DNA from: an uncultured Eubacteriales bacterium
GTDB lineage: Bacteria > Bacillota > Clostridia > Christensenellales > CAG-917
Assembly (NCBI GenBank): GCA_900548005.1
Contig: URIZ01000006.1
Location: forward strand, 7,816 to 71,815
DNA length: 64,000 bases
Direction: 5' to 3'
Program-made: the position numbers and the translations under genes
Shown here: one piece after another, positions 1 through 13,555 of the stretch
Layout of the letters: each line of letters begins with the position of its first letter
How positions within the stretch are numbered: position 1 is the stretch's first letter
The notes under the pieces: model-generated
Database searches by the model: none
What the model was told of the DNA's origin: nothing
Seen by the model: only the letters and a program-made list of their open reading frames with translations

Positions 1-448
1 CGTCGGTGAGGGCTGCGTTGAGCGAGCCGTAAGGCACGTTTGCAGCGGTGTATGCAACAGACCACACACAGTACATAACAAGCACGTATGCAAATCTGCC
101 CCAGTAGGAGAGTGCTCTGACGTCAAGGAACAAAAGCACCGTCGTAAGTGCGATTGCAAAGGCGCCACAGAAAATCCAAGGAATATATTTGCCACGTCTA
201 CCAGGCTTTCTTGCGTCAACCAACGCGCCGATGATGGGATCGTTGATTGCGTCAAAAATCTTTGAAACGATGACGATGATTGACCAATGTCCCATTGTAA
301 GTCCAAGACCTTGGGTGACAAACAACATCAAAAAACTGCTGATAAGTTGGAAACTCATGTTGCAACCGAAGTCGCCCATCATGTATCCAATCTTATCTCT
401 ATTGCCAAAAGGTCTATCAATGGGGGTATTGATTTTCTTCTTTTTCAT
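1..448 (-). CDS. GPH-family glycoside/glucuronide:cation symporter, N-terminal 149 codons (gene continues past the left edge)
   Basis: My reverse-strand translation from ATG at 446-448 reads MKKKKINTPIDRPFGNRDKIGYMMGDFGCNMSFQLISSFLMLFVTQGLG...SKIFDAINDPIIGALVDARKPGRRGKYIPW and stays open to position 1. The DKIGY-x-GDFG and DAxNDPxxG motifs are typical of MelB/GusB/UidB-type symporters. It is absent from the ORF track because no stop lies inside the window. It sits directly upstream of the GH2 gene. Confidence 0.75.
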   Translation of the reverse strand, partial: MKKKKINTPIDRPFGNRDKIGYMMGDFGCNMSFQLISSFLMLFVTQGLGLTMGHWSIIVIVSKIFDAINDPIIGALVDARKPGRRGKYIPWIFCGAFAIALTTVLLFLDVRALSYWGRFAYVLVMYCVWSVAYTAANVPYGSLNAALTD

Positions 449-466
449 AATATCTCCCTTCCTTGC

Positions 467-2731
467 TTATTTTTGGGGCTTCTTGATTTTGTTCAGCATT
501 TCGTTGACTTCAAAGAGCATGTCAGCTGTCACTTTGTCTCCTGCCAAGCCTGCGATACGTTCAATGGTCATACTGCTTGCAAGCTTCATCATACCCTTGC
601 TGATTTTCACTTCGCCTTTTGACTGGCTGTCAGGGCCTGACATCATGATTTTGACCACTCTGTCTATAAGACTATTGATGAGGGCTTCGCCTTCTTCGGT
701 TGCCATAATGTTACCAAGTTTGTCCTTGATTGAGAAATATCCTTCGGGGAACTTGAAGTCAAATTCGTTGTTTTTGTCAAACCAGTTGTCCACCTTTGCC
801 TCTGTCTTCAAGATATATCCTTGATAAGGCTTTCTCACGTACTTGATTGATGCTTCATCACTGACGTCACCGCTGACTGCCTTGATCTTGGTTGCACCGA
901 GAATCTTGAGAGGCACTTCAAAGGTGAAGATATACTTGCCTTCTTGAGTTGCAAATTCCTTGCCATTGACGTAGAGAGTCACCTTGTCGCAGTTGCTGTA
1001 CACCTTGACTGTGGTGGTCTTTTCTGCACGGTAGTAATATCTCTTTGAGGTGATGTGGACGAAAGGATCGGTGGTCCAGTATGCTTTGTAGATGTAGAAG
1101 CTGTCCTTCTTTATCTTTCTATCGTAAGTGACGAGGCCCTTGTTGTTGCGTCCTGCAACACCGCCTTCGTTTCTGCCGTCAACGCCGAAGTCAAACATAT
1201 TCCAAACGTGGGTTGCCCAGAGGTAAGGACGTTCTGCAAAAATGCGGAGGAGGTTTTCGTGATAATATGCTTGATATTCTTCACTGTAGTCACCTTGCTT
1301 GGGGTCTGAGTTGTGCCAAGTGAGAATTGCTTCACAGCCGTATTCGCTGATGCCGATTGTTCTGTCGGGGCGTGCTGCTCTAAAGTCGTCAAGCCATTCT
1401 GCGTTGCCGTTGACGTCGCCCATATACCAGCCGAAATAGTGGTTGTATGACATGATGTCGGGGAGGTCGATGATGGGAGAGTTTATGTCAAGCATTGTCA
1501 CGTTTGCCATGGTTGTGGGACGAGTTTTGTCCATATCGTGGCAAAGGTCGTTGAGTCTGTGGTGGAGTGCCATCATCTCTTCACTTTCACCGGTGATGGT
1601 GATTTCATTGCTCAGTCCCCAACAGAAGATTGATGCGTGGTTGTAGTTTTGTGTGATGAGTTCCTTCATTTGGCTCACTGCGTTTTCATCGCCGTTGGCA
1701 AGATGTGATGAAATGTAGGGGATTTCTGCCCAGACCACCATACCGTATTCGTCGCAGAGGTCATAGAAGTATTGGTCGTGTTGATAGTGTGCAAGACGGA
1801 TTGTGTTTGCGCCCAGTTCTTTGATGAGGTCGATGTCTTCCTTGTGTTCCTTTTCGGTGATTGCCCAACCCATATCTTGTCTGTCTTGGTGACGGGATAC
1901 GCCGTGGAGGGGATATTTTCTGCCGTTGAGCCAGAAGCCGTCTTTGTCTGCCTTCATTGTGCGGACACCAAAGCGGACAACTCTTTCATCGCTGTCGTTG
2001 TCTGTGGTGAGAGTGACTTTTGCTGTGTAGAGTGCAGGGTTTTCAACGCCGTCCCAAAGAATGGGATTTTCAAGGGTGTAGGTGAGGGTTGTTTTTGCAG
2101 TTGCAGGTGCTTCTGCCGTTGCCACCACTTCGCCATCAAAGAGGATGTCGCACTTTACTGTCCCGCCGTCGGTTGCACCGGTGATATAGCTGTTCACCGT
2201 GACTGTTGCACTGCCGTCTTCGTTGACGATGGGTGTCACTTTAACGCCTTCTCCGCCCAGATAGTCAAGGTCAAATCTCACTGCGGGTGCTTCGATGATA
2301 TACACGTTTCTGTAGATACCGCCAAAGAAAGTGAAGTCTGCCATTTGAGGATAGACTCTGTCGTTTGCGGAGTTGTCTGCGGACACGATGATTGTGTTTT
2401 CGCCGTCAACAAGTTGGTCGGTGATGTTGGCACGGAAGGTTGAAAAACCGCCTTCGTGATATGCAACGGACACGCCGTTGACAAACACTTCACTCATTGC
2501 GTTGACACCACGGAATTCAAGATAATACACCTTGTTTTCCTTTTTGGTGAGAGCGATTTTCTTTCTGTAGAAACACTTGCCACGGAAATAATCGTTTCCG
2601 CCGTCTTGACCGTCAAGGTTGTTCCAAGTGTGGGGCAAATTGACTTTGATGCTTTTAATTGCGTCCATTTCTTCAATGCTGTTGCAGTTTTTGAAGAAAC
2701 GCCATCCTGTGTTGATAAGTACTCTGCTCAT
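467..2731 (-). CDS. Glycoside hydrolase family 2, probable beta-glucuronidase
   Basis: 754-aa ORF with SD AAGGAGAG upstream. GH2 hallmarks are present: acid/base WGLSNE and nucleophile ISEYG. GRNNKGLVTYDRK aligns with the E. coli GUS GGNKKGIFTRDRK segment that holds the N-x-K glucuronate motif. The gene is embedded in a hexuronate operon. Confidence 0.8.
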   Translation of the reverse strand: MSRVLINTGWRFFKNCNSIEEMDAIKSIKVNLPHTWNNLDGQDGGNDYFRGKCFYRKKIALTKKENKVYYLEFRGVNAMSEVFVNGVSVAYHEGGFSTFRANITDQLVDGENTIIVSADNSANDRVYPQMADFTFFGGIYRNVYIIEAPAVRFDLDYLGGEGVKVTPIVNEDGSATVTVNSYITGATDGGTVKCDILFDGEVVATAEAPATAKTTLTYTLENPILWDGVENPALYTAKVTLTTDNDSDERVVRFGVRTMKADKDGFWLNGRKYPLHGVSRHQDRQDMGWAITEKEHKEDIDLIKELGANTIRLAHYQHDQYFYDLCDEYGMVVWAEIPYISSHLANGDENAVSQMKELITQNYNHASIFCWGLSNEITITGESEEMMALHHRLNDLCHDMDKTRPTTMANVTMLDINSPIIDLPDIMSYNHYFGWYMGDVNGNAEWLDDFRAARPDRTIGISEYGCEAILTWHNSDPKQGDYSEEYQAYYHENLLRIFAERPYLWATHVWNMFDFGVDGRNEGGVAGRNNKGLVTYDRKIKKDSFYIYKAYWTTDPFVHITSKRYYYRAEKTTTVKVYSNCDKVTLYVNGKEFATQEGKYIFTFEVPLKILGATKIKAVSGDVSDEASIKYVRKPYQGYILKTEAKVDNWFDKNNEFDFKFPEGYFSIKDKLGNIMATEEGEALINSLIDRVVKIMMSGPDSQSKGEVKISKGMMKLASSMTIERIAGLAGDKVTADMLFEVNEMLNKIKKPQK

Positions 2732-2753
2732 ATATTCTCTCCTTTATTATAAT

Positions 2754-3773
2754 CTATCTTTGCACTCTACCGCTTCCGCCGTTTTTGATGAGTGACTGTA
2801 CTTCCTTGACACCGACACGATTGAAGTCGCCTTCAATGGTGTGTTTCAGTGCGCTTGCTGCCACTGCAAATTCGAGCGCGTCTTGGTTGGTGTAGCCGTT
2901 GGTGAGGCCGTAGATGAGCCCTGCACCAAAGCTGTCACCACCACCGACTCTATCTACGATGTGCAGTGAATATTTGTTTGAGAAGTGCGCTACGCCGTCA
3001 GCGTAAAGCATTGCAGACCAATCGTTGTCGTTGGCTGAAAAACTTTCGCGGAGAGTGATTGCCACTTTCTTAAATCCGAATTTGTCAGTGAGTTTTTTGG
3101 CTACACCCACGTATCCCTCACGGCTCAATGCACCCTTTTCAATGTCGGTGCCGTCCGCTTCAATACCGAAGACGTCCTTTGCGTCTTCCTCATTGCAAAT
3201 GCACAGGTCAACGTAAGGCATAAGGCTTGTCATAACCTCTTTCGCCTTTTCTCTTGACCAAAGTTTTTTGCGGTAGTTAAGGTCACAACTGACGCTTAAT
3301 CCCTTTGCTTTTGCAACTTTAAGTGCGTTTAAGGTCACTTTGGCAAGTTCATCACTGATGGCGGGAGTGATGCCTGTGAAGTGGAACCAGTCTGCTCCGG
3401 TGAAGATTTTGTCCCAGTCAAAGTCGCTGTCGGTTGCTGTTGAAATTGATGAGTGCGCTCTGTCATAGATGACGTTTGAAGGACGGCAAGATGCACCCTT
3501 CTCCATATAATAGACCCCCATTCTTTCACCGCCACGTGCGATGAATTTTGTGTCAACGCCAAAGCCACGAAGCTCTCTGATGCAGGCTTCTGCGATTGCG
3601 TTTTCAGGGAGTTTTGTCACAAATGCGGCATCTCCGCCAAAGTTTGCAATGGACACTGCAACGTTTGCTTCACCGCCACCAAAAGTGCCGTTGAGGACAG
3701 GGGTTTGGAAAAGACGGTTGTAGCCCTCAGGGGCAAAACGCAACATAATTTCGCCAAACGTAATTACTCTCAT
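2754..3773 (-). CDS. kdgK: 2-dehydro-3-deoxygluconokinase (PfkB family)
   Basis: 339-aa ORF. N-terminus MRVITFGEIMLRF...GGGEANVAVS and C-terminal DRVGGGDSF motif are typical of KdgK. Its start overlaps the eda stop by ATGA. Confidence 0.9.
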   Translation of the reverse strand: MRVITFGEIMLRFAPEGYNRLFQTPVLNGTFGGGEANVAVSIANFGGDAAFVTKLPENAIAEACIRELRGFGVDTKFIARGGERMGVYYMEKGASCRPSNVIYDRAHSSISTATDSDFDWDKIFTGADWFHFTGITPAISDELAKVTLNALKVAKAKGLSVSCDLNYRKKLWSREKAKEVMTSLMPYVDLCICNEEDAKDVFGIEADGTDIEKGALSREGYVGVAKKLTDKFGFKKVAITLRESFSANDNDWSAMLYADGVAHFSNKYSLHIVDRVGGGDSFGAGLIYGLTNGYTNQDALEFAVAASALKHTIEGDFNRVGVKEVQSLIKNGGSGRVQR

Positions 3774-4387
3774 ATATACTCCTTTGCGATTTCCACCGCA
3801 CGTCTTGATGCGGTTTCGATGTCGCTTTCAGTTCCTTTCATCATCCAGCTTCCACCTGCGCCAATGACAAATTTTTGTCCAAGGAATTCGTGGAGATTGC
3901 TTTCACCAACACCGCCTGTAGGCACAAAGCGGACGTCAGGAAATGCTGCTGACAATGCTTTCATTGTTTTGATTCCGCCAAAGTCACTGGCAGGGAAAAA
4001 CTTGAGGACGTTGAGACCAACTGCCTTTGCCATCATAACCTCTGTGGGGGTGATGACGCCGGGGATATAGGGTACGTCACGGGAGATACACTCTTCTGCC
4101 ACTTCCTTTGAAAAGCCGGGGGACACAACAAACTTTGCCCCAATGTCAAGGGCCTTCACGCATTGTTCTCTATTGATGATTGTGCCAACGCCCACAAGCA
4201 TATCGGGGAAAGTCTTGACTGCCAGTGCAAGGCAATCGGGTGCACAAGATGTACGGAAAGTGATTTCCGCCACGTTGATGCCCCCACGCTTCAATGCGCT
4301 GAGTTTGGGGATTGTTTCGTCAATGCTGTTAAGCACCACAACGGGCACTACTTTGTTTGTGTTGAAAAATGAAAAGTCCATAGTCAC
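3770..4387 (-). CDS. eda: KDPG / 4-hydroxy-2-oxoglutarate aldolase
   Basis: 205-aa ORF with Eda-like pattern (VVPVVVL...RGGINVAEITFRT...GAKFVVSPG...VRFVPTGGV). It lies between the SDR gene and kdgK. Confidence 0.9.
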   Translation of the reverse strand: MTMDFSFFNTNKVVPVVVLNSIDETIPKLSALKRGGINVAEITFRTSCAPDCLALAVKTFPDMLVGVGTIINREQCVKALDIGAKFVVSPGFSKEVAEECISRDVPYIPGVITPTEVMMAKAVGLNVLKFFPASDFGGIKTMKALSAAFPDVRFVPTGGVGESNLHEFLGQKFVIGAGGSWMMKGTESDIETASRRAVEIAKEYI

Positions 4388-4389
4388 CT

Positions 4390-5232
4390 CTACACACCTG
4401 AATATGCGCTGAAACCGCCGTCAATGGGAAGGACTACACCAGTGATGAAACCTGCTGCTTCTTCACTCAAAAGGAAGAGAGTTGCGCCCACAAGTTCCTC
4501 AACTTCGCCAAATCTTTCCATAGGGGTTGCGTTCAGAATTTTCTTTGTTCTGGGAGTTGCGTTGCCCTCTGCGTCAAAGAGCAATGCTCTGTTTTGATTG
4601 GTCACAAAAAATCCCGGCGCAATTGCGTTGACACGGATGCCCACCTTTGCAAAGTGCACTGCAAGCCACTCTGTAAAGTTGCTGATGCCTGCCTTTGCCG
4701 CGCTGTATGCAGGGATTTTGGTGAGAGGTGTAAAGGCGTTCATTGATGAAATGTTCAGGACGGAACAGCCCTTTCTTCCAACCATACCTTTGCAGAAAAC
4801 TTGGGTGGGGAGGAAACTGCCGATGAAGTTCAGTTCAAAGACAAATCTTACCCCGCCTGCGTCAAGGTCAAAAAAGTCCTTGTCCACTTGTTTTTCAAAG
4901 GTGCAGTATTCATTGTCCGTGGTGGCACGAGGGTTATTTCCGCCTGCGCCGTTGATGAGGATGTCGGTGACACCCAAATCCTTTTCAATTTCTTCACGGA
5001 CGGCTTCAAGATTTTCCTTGTCAAGGACGTTTGTCTTGTATGCCTTTGCCACACCGCCTTCTGCGACTATTTCATTTGCCACAGCCTCTGCTGCTTCAAG
5101 ATTGAGGTCAAGGAGTGCAACCTTTGCGCCGTTTGATGCAAGGGCCTTTGCAAGGCATCCGCAGATGACTCCGCCTGCTCCTGTGATGACCACAACTTTA
5201 TTGTTCAAATTGATGCTGATAGGTGTTTTCAT
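4390..5232 (-). CDS. SDR-family oxidoreductase, probable D-mannonate/fructuronate oxidoreductase (YjmF/UxuB type)
   Basis: 280-aa ORF with Rossmann motif VVVITGAGGVICG and catalytic YSAAK. Its position between uxuA and eda fits the missing reductase step. Confidence 0.7.
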   Translation of the reverse strand: MKTPISINLNNKVVVITGAGGVICGCLAKALASNGAKVALLDLNLEAAEAVANEIVAEGGVAKAYKTNVLDKENLEAVREEIEKDLGVTDILINGAGGNNPRATTDNEYCTFEKQVDKDFFDLDAGGVRFVFELNFIGSFLPTQVFCKGMVGRKGCSVLNISSMNAFTPLTKIPAYSAAKAGISNFTEWLAVHFAKVGIRVNAIAPGFFVTNQNRALLFDAEGNATPRTKKILNATPMERFGEVEELVGATLFLLSEEAAGFITGVVLPIDGGFSAYSGV

Positions 5233-5266
5233 AATTATCCTTTTCCTTTTAGGGTTTTGTTTCGAT

Positions 5267-6319
5267 TTATTTTGACTGCTTGTTGAATCTGTTGAGGGTT
5301 TCCCATACGCCGTTGATATAACTTGCGCCCAGTGCTCTATCGTAAAGACCGTATCCGGGCTTGCCTTCTTCCCCCCAAATCATTCTGCCGTGGTCGGGGC
5401 GGAGATAGCCGTCAAAGTTGTTGTCATAGAGGGCTTTCATAATGCCGAGGATGTCAAGCGTGCCTGCGGATTGGTCGTGAGCACACTCCTCAAATCCATT
5501 GTCGAAGACACGGATATTTCTCACGTGCATAAAGTGGATTCTGCCCATCTTTGCGTACTTGTCGACCATTGCAACAAGGTCGTTGTTTTTATCTGCACCC
5601 AGTGAGCCCGTGCAGAAAGTGAGACCGTTATTGGGGCTGTCAACAAGGGAGAGGAATCTGTCGATATTCTTCTCGTTGGTGATGATACGAGGCAGGCCAA
5701 AGATATCCCACGGTGGATCATCGGGGTGGATTGCCATGTTGATGCCACACTCCTCTGCAACGGGGATTATGCGTTCAAGGAAGTAGCCAAGGTTTTCCCA
5801 CAACTTTTCACTATCCACGGCTTTATATTGCTCAAACAGACGTTTTAAGTCCTCTTTTTGATAACTTGCGTCCCAACCGGGCAAGTTCATATCATCAACC
5901 AAAGGGTCCTTGCCGTCGAGTTGTTCGCCGTAGTATACAAGGCTTGTTGAGCCGTCTTCTGCCAACTTGTCCAGTTGTGTTCTTGTCCAGTCAAAGACGG
6001 GCATGAAGTTGTAGCAAATGCACTTGACACCCACTTCACCAAGACGACGAATATTCTCGCAGTAGTTGGCGATATACTTGTCTCTTGTGGGGAGGCCAAG
6101 TTTGATGTCTTCGTGGACGGGAACGGACTCGATGACTTCTGCTTTAAGTCCGTGAGCCTCTGCTTCTCTCACAAGAGTTGCAATGCTTTCTCTGGGCCAC
6201 ACTTCGCCTACGGGCACGTCGTAGACTGCTGTCACAACACTGTACATATTGGGGATTTGTCTTATGTAGTCAAGGGGGATTCTGTCACCAAGACCATACC
6301 ATCTAAAAGTCAGTTTCAT
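5267..6319 (-). CDS. uxuA: Mannonate dehydratase
   Basis: The track ORF extends to 6352. I place the start at ATG 6317-6319 (MKLTFRWYG..., the canonical UxuA N-terminus), which has GGAG 7 nt upstream and abuts the uxaC stop. Confidence 0.9.
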   Translation of the reverse strand: MKLTFRWYGLGDRIPLDYIRQIPNMYSVVTAVYDVPVGEVWPRESIATLVREAEAHGLKAEVIESVPVHEDIKLGLPTRDKYIANYCENIRRLGEVGVKCICYNFMPVFDWTRTQLDKLAEDGSTSLVYYGEQLDGKDPLVDDMNLPGWDASYQKEDLKRLFEQYKAVDSEKLWENLGYFLERIIPVAEECGINMAIHPDDPPWDIFGLPRIITNEKNIDRFLSLVDSPNNGLTFCTGSLGADKNNDLVAMVDKYAKMGRIHFMHVRNIRVFDNGFEECAHDQSAGTLDILGIMKALYDNNFDGYLRPDHGRMIWGEEGKPGYGLYDRALGASYINGVWETLNRFNKQSK

Positions 6320-6320
6320 A

Positions 6321-7706
6321 TCAAACTCCAAAATATTTTTTTGCATTGTCAATGCAAACGTTTTTCACAAGATTTTCAAGGGTTTCCTTGTCGTCGGGAT
6401 ATTCACCGCTTTCAACCCACTCACCAACAAGTGAGCAGAATATTCTGCGGAAATAGTCGTGTCGAGCGTATGAGGTGAAGCTTCTGCTGTCTGTGAGCAT
6501 ACCGTTGAAAAGACCAAGCCCGCCTGTTGAAGCCAGCACCCTCATCTGCTCTTTTATGCCGTCACGATGGTCCATAAACCACCAAGCTGCACCCAGTTGA
6601 ATCTTGCCTCTTTCTCCTCCTTGGAAGTCCCCGATGAGGGTGGCAAGAGGATAATAGGCGGTGGGATTCAGAGTGTAGATTATTGTCTTAGGAAGGCCTC
6701 CGTTTTGCTCAACGTAGTCAAGGAAATCCCTTGCATTGTTGACGTTGAGGACGTTTGCCACACTGTCACCGCCCACGTCAACGCCACATCTGTCAAAAAG
6801 GGCTGTGTTGCAGTTGCGGATGACACCTACGTGCAGTTGCATCACCATGCCTCTGTCACGAAGCATCTTTGCAATGTGTGCCATAAGGGTAAACTGGAAT
6901 TCCGCCTTGTCTTCATCATCAATGAATTTTTCATCAAGTCTATCTTTAATGATGTCGTCGCATTTACTGACGTCTCCGTATCCAAAGGGGAAATCTTCCA
7001 TGCCGATGTCCACTGCGGTTGCGCCGTTTGCCACAAAGAAATCAAGGCGTCTTTCAACTGCTTCAAGAAGTTCATTGAATCCTTTGATTTCAACCCCTGC
7101 CACTTCACCCAGTTTCTTGACGTAGTCTGCATAGTCAGGCTTGTCGATGTTGATGAGACGGTCTGCTCTAAAACAAGGAAGCACCTTGAAGGGGTTGTCT
7201 TCACCTGCAATTGCTCTATGGGCGGAAAGGTCGTCAACGGGGTCGTCTGTGGTGACAACTGCACAAACGTTTGAACGTTCAATCAGTTTCTTTGCAGAAA
7301 AACTGCCGTCAGCCATCTTTTCAAGGGTGCGAGTCCAAATCTCCTCTGCGTTTTTAGGGCAAATAGGGAGAGTGAGGTCAAAATACTTTTTCAGTTCAAG
7401 GTGTGCCCAGTGATAGACAGGGTTGCCGATGAAGTGAGGCAAAGCCTCAGCAAAGCGGAAAAACTTCTCTTTGTCGTCGCCGTCACCGGTGATGAACTTC
7501 TCGTCAACGCCGTATGCTCTCATAATGCGCCACTTGTAGTGGTCGCCGTTGAGCCACAATTCCGTCAAATTTGAAAAAACCTTGTCGCCAAGGATATCTT
7601 GGGGAGCAAGGTGGCAGTGATAATCAAAAATAGGCAGGGACTTTGCGTATTCGTAAAGTTCCACTGCTTTGTCGTTTTCAAGAAAAACTTTATTGTCAAA
7701 AAACAT
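6321..7706 (-). CDS. uxaC: Glucuronate (uronate) isomerase
   Basis: 461-aa ORF. N-terminal FLENDKAVELY...LPIFDYHCHL is characteristic of UxaC. Confidence 0.93.
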   Translation of the reverse strand: MFFDNKVFLENDKAVELYEYAKSLPIFDYHCHLAPQDILGDKVFSNLTELWLNGDHYKWRIMRAYGVDEKFITGDGDDKEKFFRFAEALPHFIGNPVYHWAHLELKKYFDLTLPICPKNAEEIWTRTLEKMADGSFSAKKLIERSNVCAVVTTDDPVDDLSAHRAIAGEDNPFKVLPCFRADRLINIDKPDYADYVKKLGEVAGVEIKGFNELLEAVERRLDFFVANGATAVDIGMEDFPFGYGDVSKCDDIIKDRLDEKFIDDEDKAEFQFTLMAHIAKMLRDRGMVMQLHVGVIRNCNTALFDRCGVDVGGDSVANVLNVNNARDFLDYVEQNGGLPKTIIYTLNPTAYYPLATLIGDFQGGERGKIQLGAAWWFMDHRDGIKEQMRVLASTGGLGLFNGMLTDSRSFTSYARHDYFRRIFCSLVGEWVESGEYPDDKETLENLVKNVCIDNAKKYFGV

Positions 7707-7892
7707 TTTTTTCTTCCTTTTTTAGGTTGCGTCTTTTGCAGCGTTGTTGTCGTTTTGCAACCACAACGGCGTATGCATGGATGAGATAATATTCACTTTA
7801 TAGTTGTATTATACTACTGCATTTTTTGTCAGTAAATTGACAAAATTGCGAAATAACTTGCAAATCTTGCTGTATTGGATTAAAATTGAATT

Positions 7893-8756
7893 ATGAGAGA
7901 AAATATCACCACAAAATGGCAATCTTCACAGCTTATGTCAAAGAAAGATTTCGAAGTAAATCTTTACCGTGATAAGTATTTCAAAACCGTTGAGATGCAC
8001 TCCCACGATTTTTATGAGGTATACTGCTTCATCGGGGGGGCAGTTGATTATATCGTTGAGGACGGCCTATATCGTTTGCAAGCGGGGGACGTTTTGCTCA
8101 TCCCCCCAAACTATCTGCACCAACCCAACGTCAAGGACGGAAGCAAGTCCTATGACCGCATCGTGCTGTGGATAAATCCTGCCTACGTCAAGCGTCTTTC
8201 CTCCCCCTCAACCGACCTTGCCACCTGCTTTCAAAAGGCAAAGGAAAAGGGTGCTTATCTTGTGAGAAACTCCGCTCTTTCTGACAAACTTGTGACCGAG
8301 CTTATTGCAGTCATCGAAAATGAAAACTCCAACTCTTTTGGCGCGGACTTGACTGCAGAAAATCACGTCATCACCGCCCTCACCCTTTTAGGTGCTCATT
8401 ATCTTAAAAACAGGCAAGCAAAACAGGCGGAACAATCCGAGATTATATCCCGTGCAATCGAGTATATTTCCGAGCATCTAACTGAGCCAATCACCCTTGA
8501 CGACATATCAAACGCACTGTATACCAACAAGTATTATTTTGCCCACCTTTTCAAGGAAGAAACCGGCGTTTCACCCCACAATTATATCCTGAAAAAACGC
8601 CTGCTTATGTCCAAGGAATTGATTGAGCAAGGTCTGTCCATAACTGACGTTTACGTGCGCTGTGGATTCTCTGACTACACCCACTTTTTCCGCGCCTTCA
8701 AAAAGGAATTTGACCTGACTCCAAAGCAATATTTCCACCTTATGAAAGCCATCTAA
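7893..8756 (+). CDS. AraC-family transcriptional regulator (cupin sensor + AraC HTH)
   Basis: 287-aa ORF, divergent from the uronate operon. The N-terminal cupin-like part (HSHDFYEVYCF) is followed by a C-terminal AraC-type double HTH (YYFAHLFKEETGVSPHNYILKKRL...GFSDYTHFFRAFKKEF). Confidence 0.88.
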   Translation: MRENITTKWQSSQLMSKKDFEVNLYRDKYFKTVEMHSHDFYEVYCFIGGAVDYIVEDGLYRLQAGDVLLIPPNYLHQPNVKDGSKSYDRIVLWINPAYVKRLSSPSTDLATCFQKAKEKGAYLVRNSALSDKLVTELIAVIENENSNSFGADLTAENHVITALTLLGAHYLKNRQAKQAEQSEIISRAIEYISEHLTEPITLDDISNALYTNKYYFAHLFKEETGVSPHNYILKKRLLMSKELIEQGLSITDVYVRCGFSDYTHFFRAFKKEFDLTPKQYFHLMKAI

Positions 8757-8842
8757 AACCTTATAATAAACTATTTGGTTGATCAAATAATACTATATAA
8801 TGACAGAATCGAGATACGATTTACAAGCCCGATAACAAAGAG

Positions 8843-8867
8843 TCCTGACGATTGTCAGGGCTTTTTA
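8843..8867 (+). terminator. Candidate rho-independent terminator after the AraC gene
   Basis: CCTGAC-GATT-GTCAGG hairpin followed by GCTTTTTATTA. Confidence 0.45.
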
Positions 8868-8972
8868 TTATACTCAAATTCAACGACTATTTCTTGTTAC
8901 GACAAAATTACAGGCATATTTGTCGACGAGCCTTTTTATTGCATCGTGAAACTTTAATTCCCCCAAAATAGC

Positions 8973-9012
8973 AAAAAAAAAGAATACAAGTTGAGGGGTT
9001 CAACTTGTATTC
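8973..9012 (-). terminator. Strong rho-independent terminator (minus strand)
   Basis: 13-bp perfect stem GAATACAAGTTGA/TCAACTTGTATTC with loop GGGGT (8982-9012). On the minus strand it is followed by a run of nine U (A9 at 8973-8981 on the plus strand). Confidence 0.6.
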
Positions 9013-9126
9013 TGACCGGTGGAAAGGATTTGAACTAATCCGCACCGTAAGGAGTGGTTGGTGTTTTTTCAAGGTTGAAACGCAGTTTGTGTCGGCGGTT
9101 TATAACGTAAAGTATCTCAAAATGGA

Positions 9127-9705
9127 TTGTTTGGTCTAGGATTGCAAGATAAAATCCCTAACTTGCAAGAACGTATCGACCATATCTTCCACAAGCAACT
9201 TTTCGGCATTGCAATCACGGAACTAACAAGTCTGTTATCCCGCCGTAGCCTGTATTGCTCAAAATATCCAAACGGCGAATACTCGATTTCTCATTTCGAC
9301 ACCGCCGAAGGCAATACCCGTTTTCGCAAAGTAAACCACGTTTTTGTCGGCGGCAAGTGCAAATATTGCGGTGCGTCAGAAGCCCAATGGAAACGAGAAG
9401 AAGGCAAAGAAACTCACGCATATGAATTTATACACACAGAAAACCCGGAGAAAATATTCAATATGAAATTTGACGTAATTATATCTAATCCACCTTATCA
9501 ATTATCAACATCGGAAATAGAAGGAAAAGCAAATGCAATACCTATCTATCAGTTGTTTGTAAACATGTCAAAAAAACTTTCACCAAATTATTTTACAATG
9601 ATTATTCCTTCACGATGGATGACTGGTGGAACTCGTGCATTGGATGAGTTTAGAGATATGATGATTAAAGATCAAAGAGTTTCTGTATTTATAGACATTT
9701 GTTGA
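9127..9705 (+). pseudogene. Fragment of an N6-adenine DNA methyltransferase (Eco57I/TaqI-like, NPPY class)
   Basis: 192-aa ORF with motif IV DVIISNPPYQ and downstream IIPSRWMTGG..LDEFR. There is no SAM-binding motif I, and stops lie just upstream in frame. The only start is TTG. The ORF ends in three consecutive in-frame stops, TGA-TAG-TAA (9703-9711). Confidence 0.6.
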
Positions 9706-10287
9706 TAGTAAATATTTTTTTTGCAACTTCATTCTTCTGCGCCATATAGTCGTGCGGTTGACGTTCATAAGTTGTGTGACTTCGAGATAAGTCAATCCCG
9801 ACATATAGGCGCAAAGAACGTCATATTCGCCTTGCGTCAAATTCATTCTTTTTATGAGTGCGTCAACGGCGGTATAATCGTTGTTGGATTCATCGTCGAT
9901 AAAAGTTATGTGCGACGACGCAACGCTGTCGTTTATGACGGTTGTGTGCTCCAAATGGCGAGTGAATTGCTTGTCTAAGTATCTATCCGTAAACCGGAAG
10001 CACGCTTGCTTAATCGATATAATGTTTCCACGAGTAGTTGTATAAGTGTCGCCAAGCCTTTTGCCTATGTGTTCGCAAAGGAAAAGTATTGCGGTTTGCG
10101 CTATGTCATATCCGTCCGAGTATTCGGCAAGAGAATCGTTTGATTTATTACAATCTTTGATAAGTCCGTCATAAAGACGATATAAGTCTTTGCCCGAACG
10201 GCACATAACGGTTCTTATAGTAAGCAACGCTATCAATTCGCCGATTTTCTTAATGTTGTCGGCGGCTATAACAACGTCATCGCCCAA
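9610..10287 (-). CDS. Sigma-70 region-4-like HTH protein (resembles Tn916 Orf7-type element regulators)
   Basis: C-terminal LTQGEYDVLCAYMSGLTYLEVTQLMNVNRTTIWRRRMKLQKKY looks like a sigma region 4 / LuxR-type HTH. The last ~30 codons run antisense into the methyltransferase fragment, so the native C-terminus is probably lost. The start (TTG) is uncertain. Confidence 0.4.
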   Translation of the reverse strand: MGDDVVIAADNIKKIGELIALLTIRTVMCRSGKDLYRLYDGLIKDCNKSNDSLAEYSDGYDIAQTAILFLCEHIGKRLGDTYTTTRGNIISIKQACFRFTDRYLDKQFTRHLEHTTVINDSVASSHITFIDDESNNDYTAVDALIKRMNLTQGEYDVLCAYMSGLTYLEVTQLMNVNRTTIWRRRMKLQKKYLLSTNVYKYRNSLIFNHHISKLIQCTSSTSHPS

Positions 10288-10532
10288 TATGTATTGTTCT
10301 TTCGCAACGATTTTGATTTGTGCTTGAGTGTCATTATACTTAAAATTTCATTAGCCGAAAACTCGAGCGCAAAATTGTCCCTTAATTCAATCACAATCTC
10401 CTGAATGGTCATGCCGTCGCCATAATGCTCGCGTAAAACTTCCGTTATCAATCTTTTGAGCTTGTTTTTAAATGTTGTTGACTGATTATCATTTAGAATT
10501 AGTGATAAGCGAAGAAAATCTTTTTTTTCCAT
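10266..10532 (-). CDS. Small hypothetical protein (88 aa), first gene of the element-remnant operon
   Basis: ATG is preceded by GGGGAG 4 nt upstream. The ORF overlaps the next ORF by 22 nt. No motif recognised. Confidence 0.45.
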   Translation of the reverse strand: MEKKDFLRLSLILNDNQSTTFKNKLKRLITEVLREHYGDGMTIQEIVIELRDNFALEFSANEILSIMTLKHKSKSLRKNNTYWAMTLL

Positions 10533-10843
10533 AAATCTCCCCTTCTTGCGTATTTTTTTTATTATAAATCAAAAATTATTATTTTTCAATGTTTTTCCTT
10601 TTTTAGTGCTTTTTTTTAACGATCTATCATTACCTCGCTCGTCAATTATAGTGTTTAAATCCGAAAAAATATAATTGATATACTTGTAATGTTGGATTAG
10701 AGCCTTATTCTGATTTGCAACTATGTATTTTTTTCCCTTCATAATAAAAATATATGTTTGCGTTTGATAAAAAACAACGACATATTTATTTGTAAAATAT
10801 CTATCATTTTAAAAATAAGATTTATGCAAAATAATCCAAGAGA

Positions 10844-10877
10844 ATAAAAAACCAATCCGCCACCGGTGCGGATTGGT
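10844..10877 (-). terminator. Rho-independent terminator directly after the tRNA-end copy
   Basis: ACCAATCCGC-CACCGGT-GCGGATTGGT hairpin (10851-10877). On the minus strand it is followed by UUUUUAUU. Confidence 0.55.
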
Positions 10878-10881
10878 AAAA

Positions 10882-10904
10882 TGTGGTGGAGATAAGGGGA
10901 TTCG
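10882..10904. repeat. Exact 23-bp copy of the tRNA-Ala 3' end (att-core-like direct repeat)
   Basis: TGTGGTGGAGATAAGGGGATTCG at 10882-10904 matches 11192-11214 at 23/23 positions. Identity begins in the T-loop and runs through CCA plus 2 nt. Confidence 0.95.
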
Positions 10905-11159
10905 TAGGAAGCGACCTGGACGCTTCCGTAATAGCGAAGAGAGTGAACTTGTTCACTTCTCTGAGCGTCTACGCTCAACAAATCGTGCTTTGCACTGCGC
11001 CTTTCGCGGACACTTCGTGTCTGATTTGTTGGCTATGAAACTGCACTCGATGTCCGCAAATGCTACGCGCTTGCGTCTCTCTTCGTTTGTTATCAGCCCG
11101 AAGGGGTTCATGTTGCAAAGCAACACCACGATGAAATCGTGGGAATCCCCTATCCCACA
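10882..11159 (-). ncRNA. Candidate tRNA-Ala-end-mimicking structured RNA or miniature element (unclassified)
   Basis: On the minus strand, 5' GGGAUAGGGGAUUC pairs with 3' GAAUCCCCUUAUCUCC-ACCA (14 bp, two 1-nt bulges, G3.U70 kept). There are at least 6 internal hairpins and a 9-bp long-range helix CAACAAAUC/GAUUUGUUG. It has its own downstream terminator. No ORF has an RBS. Confidence 0.35.
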
Positions 11160-11160
11160 T

Positions 11161-11192
11161 AAAAAAATATCGTACATTTGTACGATATTTTT
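11161..11192 (-). terminator. Rho-independent terminator of tRNA-Ala
   Basis: Stem ATATCGTAC/GTACGATAT with loop ATTT. On the minus strand it is followed by U7. It starts 2 nt after the tRNA CCA. Confidence 0.7.
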
Positions 11193-11214
11193 GTGGTGGA
11201 GATAAGGGGATTCG
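11192..11214. repeat. tRNA-proximal copy of the 23-bp direct repeat
   Basis: Identical to 10882-10904. Overlaps the tRNA-Ala T-loop through CCA. Confidence 0.95.
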
Positions 11215-11269
11215 AACCCCTGACCTTCGCATTGCGAACGCGACGCTCTACCAACTGAGCCATATCCCC
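11194..11269 (-). tRNA. tRNA-Ala (anticodon CGC), CCA encoded
   Basis: Hand-folded cloverleaf: GGGGAUA UG GCUC AGUUGGUA GAGC G UCGCG UUCGCAA UGCGA AGGUC AGGGG UUCGAAU CCCCU UAUCUCC A CCA. G3:U70 identity pair present. 76 nt. Confidence 0.93.
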
Positions 11270-11314
11270 ACGAATTTCGCGGCTGTGACAGCCTGTGATT
11301 TTCGCTTGCTTGGT

Positions 11315-11342
11315 TATTATATCACATTATGCGATTTTGGCA
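11315..11342 (-). promoter_or_regulatory. Candidate sigma-70 promoter for tRNA-Ala
   Basis: Minus strand reads TTGCCA, 16-nt spacer, TGA-TATAAT (extended -10), about 45 nt upstream of the tRNA 5' end. Confidence 0.45.
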
Positions 11343-11393
11343 ACGGAATTTAAGCAAAAAAATAATTTCGCGCCACTTTTTCTATGCAATTCG

Positions 11394-12422
11394 TCATTTG
11401 AGCGGAACGGTTGCTTTGGCATCGAGGGACAAATCGCTCTCTTGCATGCCGCTTTTGATCATAAAGCAAGCCGCCGCACCGATCATAGCAGCGTTGTCGG
11501 TGCAATATTTCAGTTTTGGATAATGCACTTCCGCGCCGTGTTTTGCAAGATCGTCGAAACGCGCGCGCAATTCTTCGTTTGCACTGACGCCGCCTGCGAC
11601 GGCGATTTTGCGTATTCCGGTGCGCTCGATTGCGATTTTGAGCGTATCCACGAGTTGCGCCGTTGCGGATTTTTGAAAACTTGCCGCCACGTCCGCTTTG
11701 GAAATCTCCTGCCCTTTCTGTTGGAGATTGTGCACGAGATTGATGACGTACGTTTTCAAGCCGCTATAACTGAAATACAACTCGTCCTTTTCCGAAAAGT
11801 GCGGTTTTGGCATATCGAAGACCGCGTTGCCTTCCTTGGCGAGTTTTTGGATTTCAGGGCCGCCGGGATATGGCAAACCGAGCACTCTTGCCACCTTGTC
11901 GAAGGCTTCTCCGCACGCGTCGTCTCGGCTTTGAGCGACAAGCTGAAGATGCTCATAGTCAAGCACCTTGACGATTGCGGTGTGTCCGCCGCTTGCGAGC
12001 AAGCAAAGATACGGCGGTTCGAGCGTGGAATCGATATAGTTTGCGGCGATATGTCCTTTGACGTGCGATACGGCAAACAAAGGCTTGCCCCACGCATACG
12101 CGAGCGATTTTGCAAAGTTCACTCCCACAAGCAACGCTCCGAGCAACCCCGCGCCGTAGGTGACGGCAACGGCGTCGATGTCGTCCTTGGTCATATTTGC
12201 CTTTTCAAGCGCTTCTTTGACGACGTTTTCGATTGCGAGCGTGTGATTTCTGCTTGCAATCTCGGGCACAACGCCGCCGAAACGTCTGTGTATCTCGATT
12301 TGCGTTGCCACAACGTTTGATACGACTTCTCTGCCGTTTCTCACGATTGCGCAAGCGGTCTCGTCACAGCTCGACTCGATGGCGAGCACCGTCAAATTTT
12401 CTTTGTTTTGCAAACTATTCAT
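11394..12422 (-). CDS. tsaD: tRNA N6-adenosine threonylcarbamoyltransferase
   Basis: The track ORF runs to 12602, but its first 60 codons are Arg-rich junk overlapping prfB. I start at ATG 12420-12422 (MNSLQNKENLTVLAIESSCDETACAIV...), a typical TsaD/Kae1 N-terminus. Confidence 0.9.
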   Translation of the reverse strand: MNSLQNKENLTVLAIESSCDETACAIVRNGREVVSNVVATQIEIHRRFGGVVPEIASRNHTLAIENVVKEALEKANMTKDDIDAVAVTYGAGLLGALLVGVNFAKSLAYAWGKPLFAVSHVKGHIAANYIDSTLEPPYLCLLASGGHTAIVKVLDYEHLQLVAQSRDDACGEAFDKVARVLGLPYPGGPEIQKLAKEGNAVFDMPKPHFSEKDELYFSYSGLKTYVINLVHNLQQKGQEISKADVAASFQKSATAQLVDTLKIAIERTGIRKIAVAGGVSANEELRARFDDLAKHGAEVHYPKLKYCTDNAAMIGAAACFMIKSGMQESDLSLDAKATVPLK

Positions 12423-12445
12423 AGCCTTTTTACGCCTGTTTTGCC

Positions 12446-13555
12446 TTATTTTTGAATGGACGAAAGTTTGAGATATTCGTTGATAAACCCGTCCAAATCG
12501 CCGTCCATAACCGCCTGTACGTTGCCGGTTTCGTAGTTTGTGCGGTGATCCTTGACCATGGTGTAGGGGCAGAACACGTACGAGCGAATTTGGCTGCCCC
12601 ACTCGATTTTTTTGAGCTGACCGCTGATTTGCGCCGCCTCTTCTTCACGCTCGCGCTCACGCTTTTCGATGAGTTTTGAGCGGAGCATTTGCATTGCGAC
12701 TTCGCGGTTTTGGATCTGACTTCTTTCGTTTTGACACGCAACGATGATGCCTGTCGGGATGTGGGTTATGCGAATTGCGCTCTCTGTTTTGTTGACGTGC
12801 TGACCGCCTGCGCCCGACGAGCGATAGGTGTCCACTTTGAGATCTTCGGGGCGAATCTCGATTTCCGCCGTGTCGATGATCTCTGGCATAACTTCAAGGG
12901 ACGCAAAAGACGTATGTCTTCTTGCGTTTGCATCAAACGGCGAAATACGCACAAGTCTATGCACGCCTTTTTCCGCTTTGAGATATCCGTATGCGTTGTC
13001 GCCTTCCACCCTGAAAGTGACGGATTTTACGCCTGCCTCGTCGCCTGCGAGATAATCGAGCTCGGTGCAAGTCCAGCCCGTACGCTCGCAATAGCGCGTG
13101 TACATTCTATACAGCATGGAGCACCAGTCTTGCGCCTCCGTTCCGCCTGCGCCCGCGTGCAAAGTGAGTATTGCGTTGAGCGAATCGTATTTGCCGCTGA
13201 GCAGCGTTGCAAGCGAAAGGCTCTCCACCGCCTCGCCCAGATCGTGCACCGTCGTCAACAATTTCTCGTCTTCGGTTTCATCGCCTTCGAGCTCTATGAT
13301 ATCCACGGTGTCGATTGCATCGTCAATGCGCGCAATCATCTTCTCGAACTTGTCGATTTTGCCTTGGAGTTGACTTATCTCGCGGCTGACTTTTTTTGCG
13401 TTGTCGGTATCGTTCCAAAATCCGTCCGCATTCTGCTCTTTTTCAAGCTCTGCGATTCTTTGGCGCATTTTGTCGGGATTTATGGACTCGTAAGCGCGCA
13501 CCATTTCGGTGCGCATCTTGCTAAGTTGGTTTCTCGGTTCGTTGTAATCTAACAT
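12446..13555 (-). CDS. prfB: Peptide chain release factor 2 (single uninterrupted frame)
   Basis: 369-aa ORF with the SPF tripeptide (RISPFDANARRHTSF) and GGQ (SGAGGQHVNKTES). Confidence 0.93.
   Translation of the reverse strand: MLDYNEPRNQLSKMRTEMVRAYESINPDKMRQRIAELEKEQNADGFWNDTDNAKKVSREISQLQGKIDKFEKMIARIDDAIDTVDIIELEGDETEDEKLLTTVHDLGEAVESLSLATLLSGKYDSLNAILTLHAGAGGTEAQDWCSMLYRMYTRYCERTGWTCTELDYLAGDEAGVKSVTFRVEGDNAYGYLKAEKGVHRLVRISPFDANARRHTSFASLEVMPEIIDTAEIEIRPEDLKVDTYRSSGAGGQHVNKTESAIRITHIPTGIIVACQNERSQIQNREVAMQMLRSKLIEKREREREEEAAQISGQLKKIEWGSQIRSYVFCPYTMVKDHRTNYETGNVQAVMDGDLDGFINEYLKLSSIQK

Follow-up and report, generated by a model that had tools for sequence, protein, structure and literature searches.

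A gene-free element ending in a tRNA 3′ end

The question addressed here is what kind of entity lies behind a tRNA gene of a gut bacterium, holds no gene of its own and repeats, at its own end, the 3′ end of that tRNA. It is raised by a window of 64,000 nucleotides (contig URIZ01000006.1 of an uncultured Eubacteriales bacterium; positions are those of the window unless a locus is named), in which a tRNA-Ala(CGC) gene with encoded CCA occupies 11194-11269 of the minus strand (ARAGORN call; Rfam tRNA score 72.5 bits). It is followed on the same strand by a 278-nt element, 11159-10882, that starts 35 nt past the CCA of the tRNA. A sequence-only reading of the locus had offered three explanations: an attachment-site (att) scar of an excised island, a miniature inverted-repeat transposable element (MITE), or a non-coding RNA resembling tRNA or transfer-messenger RNA (tmRNA). 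We find that the element belongs to a family that is real and previously unclassified, and of which we found no description in the literature. The family, its structure, the matching of its tails to local tRNAs, its selection, its polymorphism among strains and the layout of its transcription signals are established here by observation. Our preferred reading, held tentatively and at slightly less than an even chance, is that the window element is one of the long variants in a family of non-coding RNAs that are structured, conserved and appended to tRNA genes in Christensenella-like gut Clostridia.

The 23-mer TGTGGTGGAGATAAGGGGATTCG was found at exactly two sites in the window, 10882-10904 and 11192-11214, even with three mismatches allowed, and 100 shuffles gave 0 chance matches. 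It corresponds to tRNA positions C56-A76 plus 2 nt, and a degenerate inverted copy of this tail is present at the tRNA-proximal end of the element. The 287-bp segment bounded by the repeats contains no genes and no integrase, the window flanks tested hold no integrase adjoining the element, and a conserved open reading frame (ORF) is not possible because homologues differ by frame-breaking indels. On the tRNA call, the exact 23/23 repeat, the inverted copy and the missing integrase, the sequence-only reading thus proved correct. When folded as minus-strand RNA, the 278-mer reached -107.1 kcal/mol as compared with -76.3 ± 4.8 for shuffles (z = -6.4), and its minimum free energy structure contains the helix between the 5′ and 3′ ends. 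Neither the window element nor other family members matched Rfam, even at permissive thresholds.

A family of units behind tRNA genes

The search for further copies that had been proposed from the sequence was productive. The first relative came from a blastn match to a faecal 'phage' contig (MT835493; L001), with the same layout behind tRNA-Arg(ACG): its element ends in the tRNA-Arg tail, and the identity starts at the same T-loop position. The flanking genes of this record are those of a bacterial chromosome (L198), hence the MT835493 element is host DNA. A scan of GTDB species genomes with the pattern CGCTATTACG...CTACGAATCC returned 53 loci, ~38 of them genuine, and a metagenome scan with the tail left unconstrained added ~46 instances, nearly all from human-gut assemblies. 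The joiner CGCUAUUACG was written into both scan patterns, so its constancy in these collections is largely due to ascertainment; variants detected by a covariance model exist. This model was built from five consistent rows and gave 89 matches in the loci already found, including extra array members. Several candidates were rejected: eleven metagenome matches ending in CTAC followed by CTCGGCGACGAGG belong to a coding gene, the GAACCCCTNCGGGCTGA scan returned only false positives, and the viral-contig matches to GCATTTGCGGANATCGAG and TTGAGCGTAGACGCTC were coding-sequence false positives only. As an aside, CGCTATTACG bears a likeness to HUH nick sites (TATTAC), as does its complement to ssoA CS-6 (TAGCG); both resemblances are too short to carry weight.

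The GTDB instances derive mostly from Christensenella, Christensenellales and 'Clostridiales' metagenome-assembled genomes (human, rabbit and buffalo gut), and a few sit in bins that bear the label Bacteroidaceae or Phascolarctobacterium. The position of units is always behind a tRNA gene and on its strand, at a distance of 90-450 nt, and the neighbours are Ala, Ser, Arg, Lys and Tyr genes. Tandem arrays of 2-3 copies are frequent, and genomes hold 1-7 units. The flanking genes are ordinary housekeeping genes, and ~20 flanks examined revealed no recurrent integrase or phage gene. No family member was found in the plasmid collection, and members are very rare in viral contigs, where a single one (L154) is genuine.

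Two members were seen apart from a tRNA gene. The viral contig L154 (IMG/VR 3300045988_176260, 8700-10264) carries a unit whose tail is of tRNA-Ser type, ~180 nt downstream of an apparent serine recombinase C-terminus. Part of a second unit comes after the first, and a TIR-domain/methyltransferase ORF is nearby (7039-8337); no tRNA lies on the stretch examined. In Christensenella sp. nC33, ~1.3 kb beyond window coordinate 1, an orphan long form (L196 3972-4252) is 97% identical to the window element. It has neither a tRNA nor a consensus promoter upstream, and ends in a degenerate tail, CGAATCCCTTTGTTTCCATCA, in which three substitutions turn Watson-Crick pairs with the 5′ strand into G.U wobbles.

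Covariation of a six-helix core

The compact unit, 125-165 nt in length, consists from 5′ to 3′ of a 5′ strand that complements the tail, the hairpins P2 and P3, GAA, hairpin P4, the joiner GGCUGACGCU, an optional P5, the joiner CGCUAUUACG, P6, CUA and the tail, which with the 5′ strand forms P1. The six-helix core with GGCUGACGCU, CGCUAUUACG and CUA as joiners is common to the family. Conservation and covariation of the terminal helix and hairpins in homologous loci had been set beforehand as a check, and both were found. Among 39 distinct confident units 93.0% of cells were paired, as compared with 71.9 ± 0.7% in shuffles and 36-51% with slid partners, and 31 of the 35 core pairs had changed on both sides, with support for all six helices including P1; these figures come from an alignment fitted to the model and lean towards structure. 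P1 covaries with the tail type (double changes in 8/8 pairs, 86.6% paired). RNAalifold, run independently on nine long forms, recovered P1-P6 together with a long-range helix and four compensatory positions, and the homologues each refold the enclosed long-form segment into two or three hairpins of differing sequence. On the compact units, MAFFT plus RNAalifold mis-registered the hairpins and the covariance model was used instead. The GAGCG/CGCUC hairpin is nearly invariant, so no covariation signal is possible there. A UNCG tetraloop in P4 was considered as evidence of strand and dropped, as a 3-bp stem capped by a UNC triloop is the better reading of this loop.

Agreement of tails with local tRNAs

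Where an upstream tRNA was called, the tail was identical to C56-A76 of that tRNA (21/21) in 20 of 36 units of the genome set and 20 of 32 of the metagenome set; the remaining units have diverged or non-CCA tails. Complete matches span at least nine tRNA species, the matched tRNAs including Ala(CGC), Ala(GGC), Ser(CGA), Arg(ACG), Arg(CCG), Arg(CCU), Lys(CUU) and Tyr(GUA), and several more tails have no assigned source. At Ser(UGA) loci the tail copy is partial (8 nt). Tails with the variant T-loop CGAGUCC match at 21/21 and the CGAAUCU variant is also matched, those with CGACCCC and CGACUCC match only in part (19/21 and 11/21), and CAAGUCC, CAAAUCC and CGAUUCC tails were seen where no upstream tRNA was called. 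The junction is invariably xUA directly followed by C56. Of 36 non-redundant units, 35 pair 7-9 of the 9 positions in the core of P1 (57-65 with the 5′ strand), and the remaining one pairs 6.

The acceptor region behaves differently from this core. The window copy does form G1-C72, G2-C71 and G3.U70, so the acceptor/T-arm-like helix described from the sequence stands for this copy, and 'B-type' copies can likewise form these pairs with an ACCA end. It is not a feature of the family, where between 0 and 6 of the 7 acceptor-region pairs form, Ala(GGC) units show A3-U70 or unpaired ends, and G3.U70 is not kept among Ala-type units; most family tails are of Ser, Arg or Lys type, and one subgroup lacks CCA. 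The notion of a tRNA-Ala minihelix charged by alanyl-tRNA synthetase via G3.U70 is therefore a peculiarity of the window copy, given that acceptor pairing, G3.U70 and CCA vary across the family. The related tmRNA reading can draw on a sub-threshold tmRNA_permuted match (26.4 bits against a gathering score of 47). With tmRNA, including its two-piece and permuted forms, the element shares a large structured insert closed by a 5′ strand and a tRNA-like 3′ end with CCA terminus. However, the tmRNA_permuted match covers the tRNA 3′ end, spacer and 5′ strand, not the element; ARAGORN called no tmRNA and no tmRNA family reached its Rfam threshold. The whole body replaces the T-loop, the indels preclude a conserved reading frame, and short units are without the candidate tag-frame region altogether. 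Unlike tmRNA, the family has no T-loop, D-loop analogue, tag frame or pseudoknot series, and its tails are of many tRNA types. We consider a tmRNA-like or aminoacylatable molecule extremely unlikely. Among the explanations first offered, an unclassified non-coding RNA nonetheless comes closest to the evidence (covariation, purifying selection, no Rfam match) once the likeness to tmRNA is given up.

In one Ser-CGA subgroup (L193, L200, L209, L210 and L234), the 5′ strand complements the upstream tRNA-Ser tail perfectly over 13 nt. The tail of the unit itself reads CGAAUCC(C/U)AU and continues into a large conserved hairpin (…GAUGUUCUUUGC.CAGCAAAGACUUACGCCACCG), with no acceptor strand and CCA.

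Selection, lineages and strain polymorphism

Unit bodies cluster by tRNA locus across genomes, and the Ala and Ser units of one genome fall into different clusters. At the Ser-CGA locus, third-codon identity of the flanking gene was 65.4%, 66.1% and 75.3%, with corresponding values of 91.2%, 85.8% and 84.6% for the unit region. This slow divergence, together with the compensatory changes, points to long-term purifying selection and is unlike either a recent burst or a decaying scar. The window could not be used for the same test by comparison with L186, since a recent recombination block confounds it, and the Arg-ACG loci are too alike.

These results bear on two of the explanations given from the sequence. 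As an inert scar, the two 23-mers would be the attL and attR of an island that lost its interior, and the 287 bp a leftover arm with no present function. The direct repeat of a tRNA 3′ end with no genes inside agrees with this, as does the neighbouring segment 9024-10884, which looks like such a decayed island at the same tRNA end; the scar explanation thus accounts for the identity from T-loop to CCA. It leaves unexplained an interior that is kept behind different tRNAs in many genomes with 31/35 pairs covarying, the locus-specific lineages, the divergence far slower than that of synonymous sites, the identical short units in tandem and the lack of an integrase in the flanks, and we judge it very unlikely. 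The MITE explanation, with terminal inverted repeats that resemble a tRNA end by chance, rests on the inverted complementarity of 5′ strand and tail, the small size and the lack of coding capacity. But no target-site duplication flanks the unit, the supposed inverted repeat varies with the adjacent tRNA, and the 1-7 units per genome lie in one orientation behind tRNA genes and cluster by locus, not by genome. Copies away from tRNA genes with duplicated flanks and a cognate transposase were not seen, bar the orphan L196 with its degenerate tail. This explanation did not survive, and we give it next to no weight.

Contigs with an identical TsaD protein show four states, with 0, 1, 2 or 3 units: none; one long unit (the window); a short plus a long unit; and two identical 160-bp short units plus a long one. 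We found no clean empty site sharing the distal flank, and homologous recombination between the repeats explains the copy-number states equally well as att-bounded insertion. The window unit itself looks like the product of recombination, at the shared GAACCCCUUCGGGCUGA, between a short unit and a long one. In L176, two near-identical tandem units carry different tails and are joined exactly after CUACGAAUCC, which indicates that tails were switched by recombination at the T-loop.

Comparison of window 1-12539 with Christensenella sp. nC33 (L186 and L196; CP091723.1) reveals a mosaic of identity, with 99.6% from window 9023 to 1, 86.7% for tsaD and 83.7% for the tsaD-tRNA spacer. The tRNA and the spacer hairpin (both 100%) and the element (98.5%) group with the highly similar side, placing a recent recombination boundary just upstream of the tRNA. 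Arrays often end in a 5′ half-unit (5′ strand, P2, P3, P4) cut after GGCUG(A/G)C or P4, as in L198 5626-5771, L177 3513-3636, L001 3369-3492, L214 1728-1831 and L181 2175-2309. The cut coincides with the point at which long-form domains are inserted and short units joined, an apparent recurrent breakpoint. Behind tRNA-Lys(CUU) in L199 (5051-5347), ~230 nt with iteron-like repeats (TTTGATGTCAAA three times, plus AAACGTC-type) stand in place of the 5′ half of the unit, and a normal 3′ module and tail follow.

Anatomy of the window copy

The window copy is a long form in which every hairpin listed from the sequence exists, and in which P2, P3, P5, P6, GACAC/GUGUC and the long-range helix CAACAAAUC/GAUUUGUUG are backed by compensatory change or by independent refolding in homologues. 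All parts lie on the minus strand. The 5′ strand of P1, UGUGGGAUAGGGGAUUC (11143-11159), is an imperfect complement of the tail. It is followed by P2, CCACGAU/AUCGUGG (11142-11126; 95.1% paired, compensatory change in 7/7 pairs), and P3, UGUUGC/GCAACA (11125-11111; 95.6% paired, 5/6 pairs). The P4 mini-hairpin CCC-UUC-GGG comes next, with the conserved joiner GCUGA (together 11093-11106), which in compact units extends into the invariant GGCUGACGCU and in the window is the insertion point of the long form: GGCUGA is here followed by two additional domains, 11092-11034 and 11033-10973.

Domain 1, UAACAAACGAAGAGAGACGCAAGCGCGUAGCAUUUGCGGACAUCGAGUGCAGUUUCAUA (11034-11092), forms nested helices and its sequence is kept between Ala-type and Arg-type long forms. 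Domain 2 (10973-11033) is a long-range helix, 11033-11023/10984-10973, around three hairpins: GACAC/GUGUC at 11021-11009, one at 11008-10998 and GUGC/GCAC at 10995-10985. The closing helix has four compensatory positions, and nine homologues share the architecture with different sequences. A P4/joiner-like repeat, GAGCGUAGACGCUC, lies at 10976-10963, and the covariance model reads 11026-10884 as a second unit-like half (63.7 bits). P5, AGAGAAGUGAAC/GUUCACUCUCU, spans 10962-10938 (95.9% paired, 5/5 compensatory). The joiner CGCUAUUACG (10936-10927) begins a 3′ module (10905-10936) that continues with P6, GGAAGCG/CGCUUCC (10927-10907), and CUA (10907-10905), and that is common even to relatives with different bodies. 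The tail (10882-10904) is the exact copy of tRNA-Ala C56-A76 (10904-10884), templated by the last 21 nt of the gene (11214-11194), plus CA, and forms the 3′ strand of P1.

Transcription signals and a proposed pathway

A promoter-like site, TTGCCA-16-TGnTATAAT, lies upstream of the tRNA-Ala gene at 11343-11316 (minus strand; 11/12 matches). It is the only strong sense-strand candidate for the tRNA and the element, and a consensus scan found no promoter-like site in the interval between the two. Downstream of the element, a GC-rich hairpin of 10 bp followed by U6 (10877-10846, minus strand; ΔG -16.5) is the sole consensus terminator in the scan. The AU-rich spacer hairpin behind the tRNA (11163-11192, minus strand; 13 bp, U7, ΔG -13.6) is terminator-like and falls below the terminator criteria of the scan. 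The sequence-only reading had given the tRNA and the element a terminator each; both structures with their U-runs exist, but only the distal one passes as a consensus terminator. The spacer hairpin is also the apex of an alternative hairpin, 11216-11141, in which the 5′ strand of the element pairs with the upstream tRNA tail across the spacer (-38.1 kcal/mol).

From this layout we infer transcription, processing, a role for the tail and a cellular function along the following lines. Transcription would start at the tRNA promoter, partly read through the AU-rich hairpin after the tRNA, run on through the element and end at the GC-rich terminator. The 5′ strand of the element would then pair with its own 3′ tail as P1, closing a multi-helix junction of P2-P6 that would be held by the invariant single-stranded joiners, with the two additional domains of the window copy placed at the P4/P5 junction. 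As the tail is the 3′ 21 nt of the neighbouring tRNA, NCCA included, the 3′ end of the RNA would be trimmed, protected and repaired by the tRNA 3′-end machinery, and such handling is the role we propose for the tail. At the DNA level, the tRNA tail and unit tails form direct repeats, between which recombination may alter copy number, delete units and swap bodies; rare crossovers in the near-universal T-loop might place an existing body before the tail of a new tRNA. As to function, our guess is a mimic of, or competitor for, factors that read tRNA 3′ ends.

Several observations weigh against this structured-RNA reading, beside the lean of the covariation figures. Outside P1, 12 independent G.U events stand against 17 A.C events; G.U is not in excess, so that the usual signature of a sense-strand RNA is missing and a structure formed in DNA or on either strand is possible. 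Acceptor-end pairing and a CCA end are not universal, one Ser-CGA subgroup being without CCA. The spacers are terminator-like almost everywhere (median ΔG -13.6; 32/36 at or below -8; a U-run of at least 5 in 25/36), which points to limited read-through, on which expression must depend. The 5′ strand pairs with the upstream tail equally well, making P1 inseparable from a long palindrome. Finally, the evidence does not explain how bodies spread to more than 12 tRNA types with matching 5′ strands. The spacers, the strand test, the alternative pairing, the tail switching and the recombination hot spot at the tRNA end together keep an origin or maintenance at the DNA level, driven by a recombinase, a serious rival.

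Insertion into the T-loop as a rival explanation

This rival would take the family as a non-autonomous integrative DNA element, a miniature att-bearing unit inserted into tRNA T-loops by a recombinase acting in trans. The unit would then be circularly permuted (tail, terminator, 5′ strand, body, CUA) and, like tRNA-targeting islands, would displace the original tail and bring a replacement tail and terminator. Single-stranded DNA would be the form in which it folds and acts, and, as in integron attC sites, the crossover would fall at the palindrome made up by tail, spacer and 5′ strand. The identity that, whatever the tRNA type, runs from a fixed T-loop point to the CCA has the extent classically ascribed to att sites (Williams 2002, as cited in PMC9897764), and an integrative origin is the standard explanation for partial tRNA genes (PMC9897764). 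Also in its favour are the terminator-like hairpin right after the proximal tail of every unit, the arrays with truncated distal half-units, the L176 pair with its different tails, the symmetry of G.U and A.C changes, which fits a DNA-level structure, the high stability of the long palindrome, and the presence of a conventional island at the same tRNA end and of serine-recombinase elements at tails.

Att remnants of the T-loop class, as Williams 2002 is cited for them, and CIME-like elements share with the family the direct repeat from T-loop to gene end, the tandem accretion at one tRNA, and a proximal copy that restores the tRNA and brings a terminator. Family units differ in being gene-free and only 130-310 bp long, with no integrase nearby, and in an interior that is conserved, covarying and under purifying selection in locus-specific lineages. 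The att-core footprint claimed from the sequence holds in part: the identity from T-loop to CCA fits, but the element side of the core (the variable P6 and CUA) lacks the T-stem mirror expected of tyrosine-recombinase core sites. Neither the window nor the ~20 flanks showed an adjoining integrase, and no autonomous relative with genes between the halves was found; the integrase-bearing island between the 23-mers that the sequence-only reading had envisaged in relatives did not appear. Old locus-specific lineages, purifying selection and few copies are unlike an active or a decaying mobile element, and the near-absence from viral contigs and absence from plasmids also count against it. An integrative element is in our view a less likely explanation than a structured RNA, though one to be taken seriously, and the two are not mutually exclusive.

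The neighbouring island merits description. The segment 9024-10884 is a ~1.86-kb strain-specific insertion placed exactly at the CCA end of the element tail; in L108 and L186 the tail runs directly into the sequence that resumes at window 9023. Its distal end (~9046-9018, sense GATTAGTTCAAATCCTTTCCACC followed by GG) resembles a degenerate T-arm plus tail. The insertion holds an AT-rich stretch, two ORFs with no Pfam match (10266-10532 and 9610-10287, of which the second gave a weak CARF-like PADLOC match) and a truncated fragment of an Eco57I-like type IIG methyltransferase (9127-9705). The segment resembles a genomic island in decay that retains no integrase. A different arrangement is seen in L112 (4428-5959; same species, identical TsaD), where the small element is missing: directly behind tRNA-Ala(CGC) come another terminator and, in convergent orientation, the gene for a large serine recombinase (Resolvase, Recombinase and Zn_ribbon_recom domains). 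This other terminator also stands behind tRNA-Ala(GGC) arrays in L171 and L189. The serine recombinases beside tails in L112 and L154 are separate insertions.

Comparison with known systems

The closest precedent is rtT (rttR, RF00391) of Enterobacteria, which is reported to be processed from the tyrT transcript and whose role is described as unclear (bioRxiv 10.1101/2024.07.17.603846). In E. coli (NC_000913.3, 1286700-1287330), three ~178-bp repeats lie behind tyrV, where rttR is annotated. Each ends in AATCCTTCCCCCACCACCA, a 19-mer of the tRNA-Tyr 3′ end from the T-loop, and each carries an internal GGGGAAGGAT complementary to the tRNA-Tyr-derived tail AUCCUUCCCC, so that on sequence these repeats could form a tail-closing helix like P1 of the family. 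Both systems are thus non-coding tandem repeats directly behind a tRNA gene and on its strand, ending in a tRNA 3′ copy from T-loop to CCA (19 nt in E. coli, 21 nt in the family) and containing a stretch complementary to that tail. The likeness is one of architecture only. There is no sequence or Rfam similarity, and no RF00391 match was obtained for the window element, even at E <= 10, or for other members. The family is set apart from rtT by its six-helix covarying core, its optional large domains and the terminator-like hairpins that separate units (the E. coli gap is 7 nt), and it occurs on many tRNA species in Clostridia, whereas rtT occurs on one.

Small RNAs from spacers and trailers of tRNA operons, such as 3′ETS-leuZ, are a further case of functional RNA within a tRNA transcription unit, freed by tRNA processing. 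They are short base-pairing sponges with no copy of a tRNA tail and no conserved multi-helix fold, unlike the family. By analogy only, integron attC arrays also have imperfect palindromes, with bulged bases and the junction at the palindrome base, between short units. They differ in that no IntI-like gene was found here, the junction between UA and CGAAUCC departs from GTTRRRY, and the family units are non-coding.

Implications

A further idea, more speculative and less probable than either a structured RNA or an integrative element, is that of a gene-less element that copies the 3′ end of its tRNA, or of tRNA-3′-end decoys selected by the host, one per tRNA species. Copying might conceivably proceed by structure-dependent T-loop recombination on single-stranded DNA, by analogy with attC, or by an RNA-level reaction in which the 5′ strand guides a tRNA 3′ fragment, C56-A76. 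As decoys, the units could titrate factors directed against tRNA T-loops and CCA ends, such as nucleases, nucleotidyltransferase toxins or integrases. If true, copier or decoys would account for the fixed junction of xUA with C56, for a 5′ strand that matches, for the arrays and for selection over the long term.

The family would add a well-supported but unclassified structured RNA or element from abundant human-gut Clostridia to a category that has so far held essentially one poorly understood example, rtT. It also carries a warning for annotation, in that partial tRNA 3′ ends behind tRNA genes are not always att scars. With homologous bodies bearing the tails of many tRNAs, it becomes testable how and why an element gains, and keeps, the exact 3′ end of the neighbouring tRNA.

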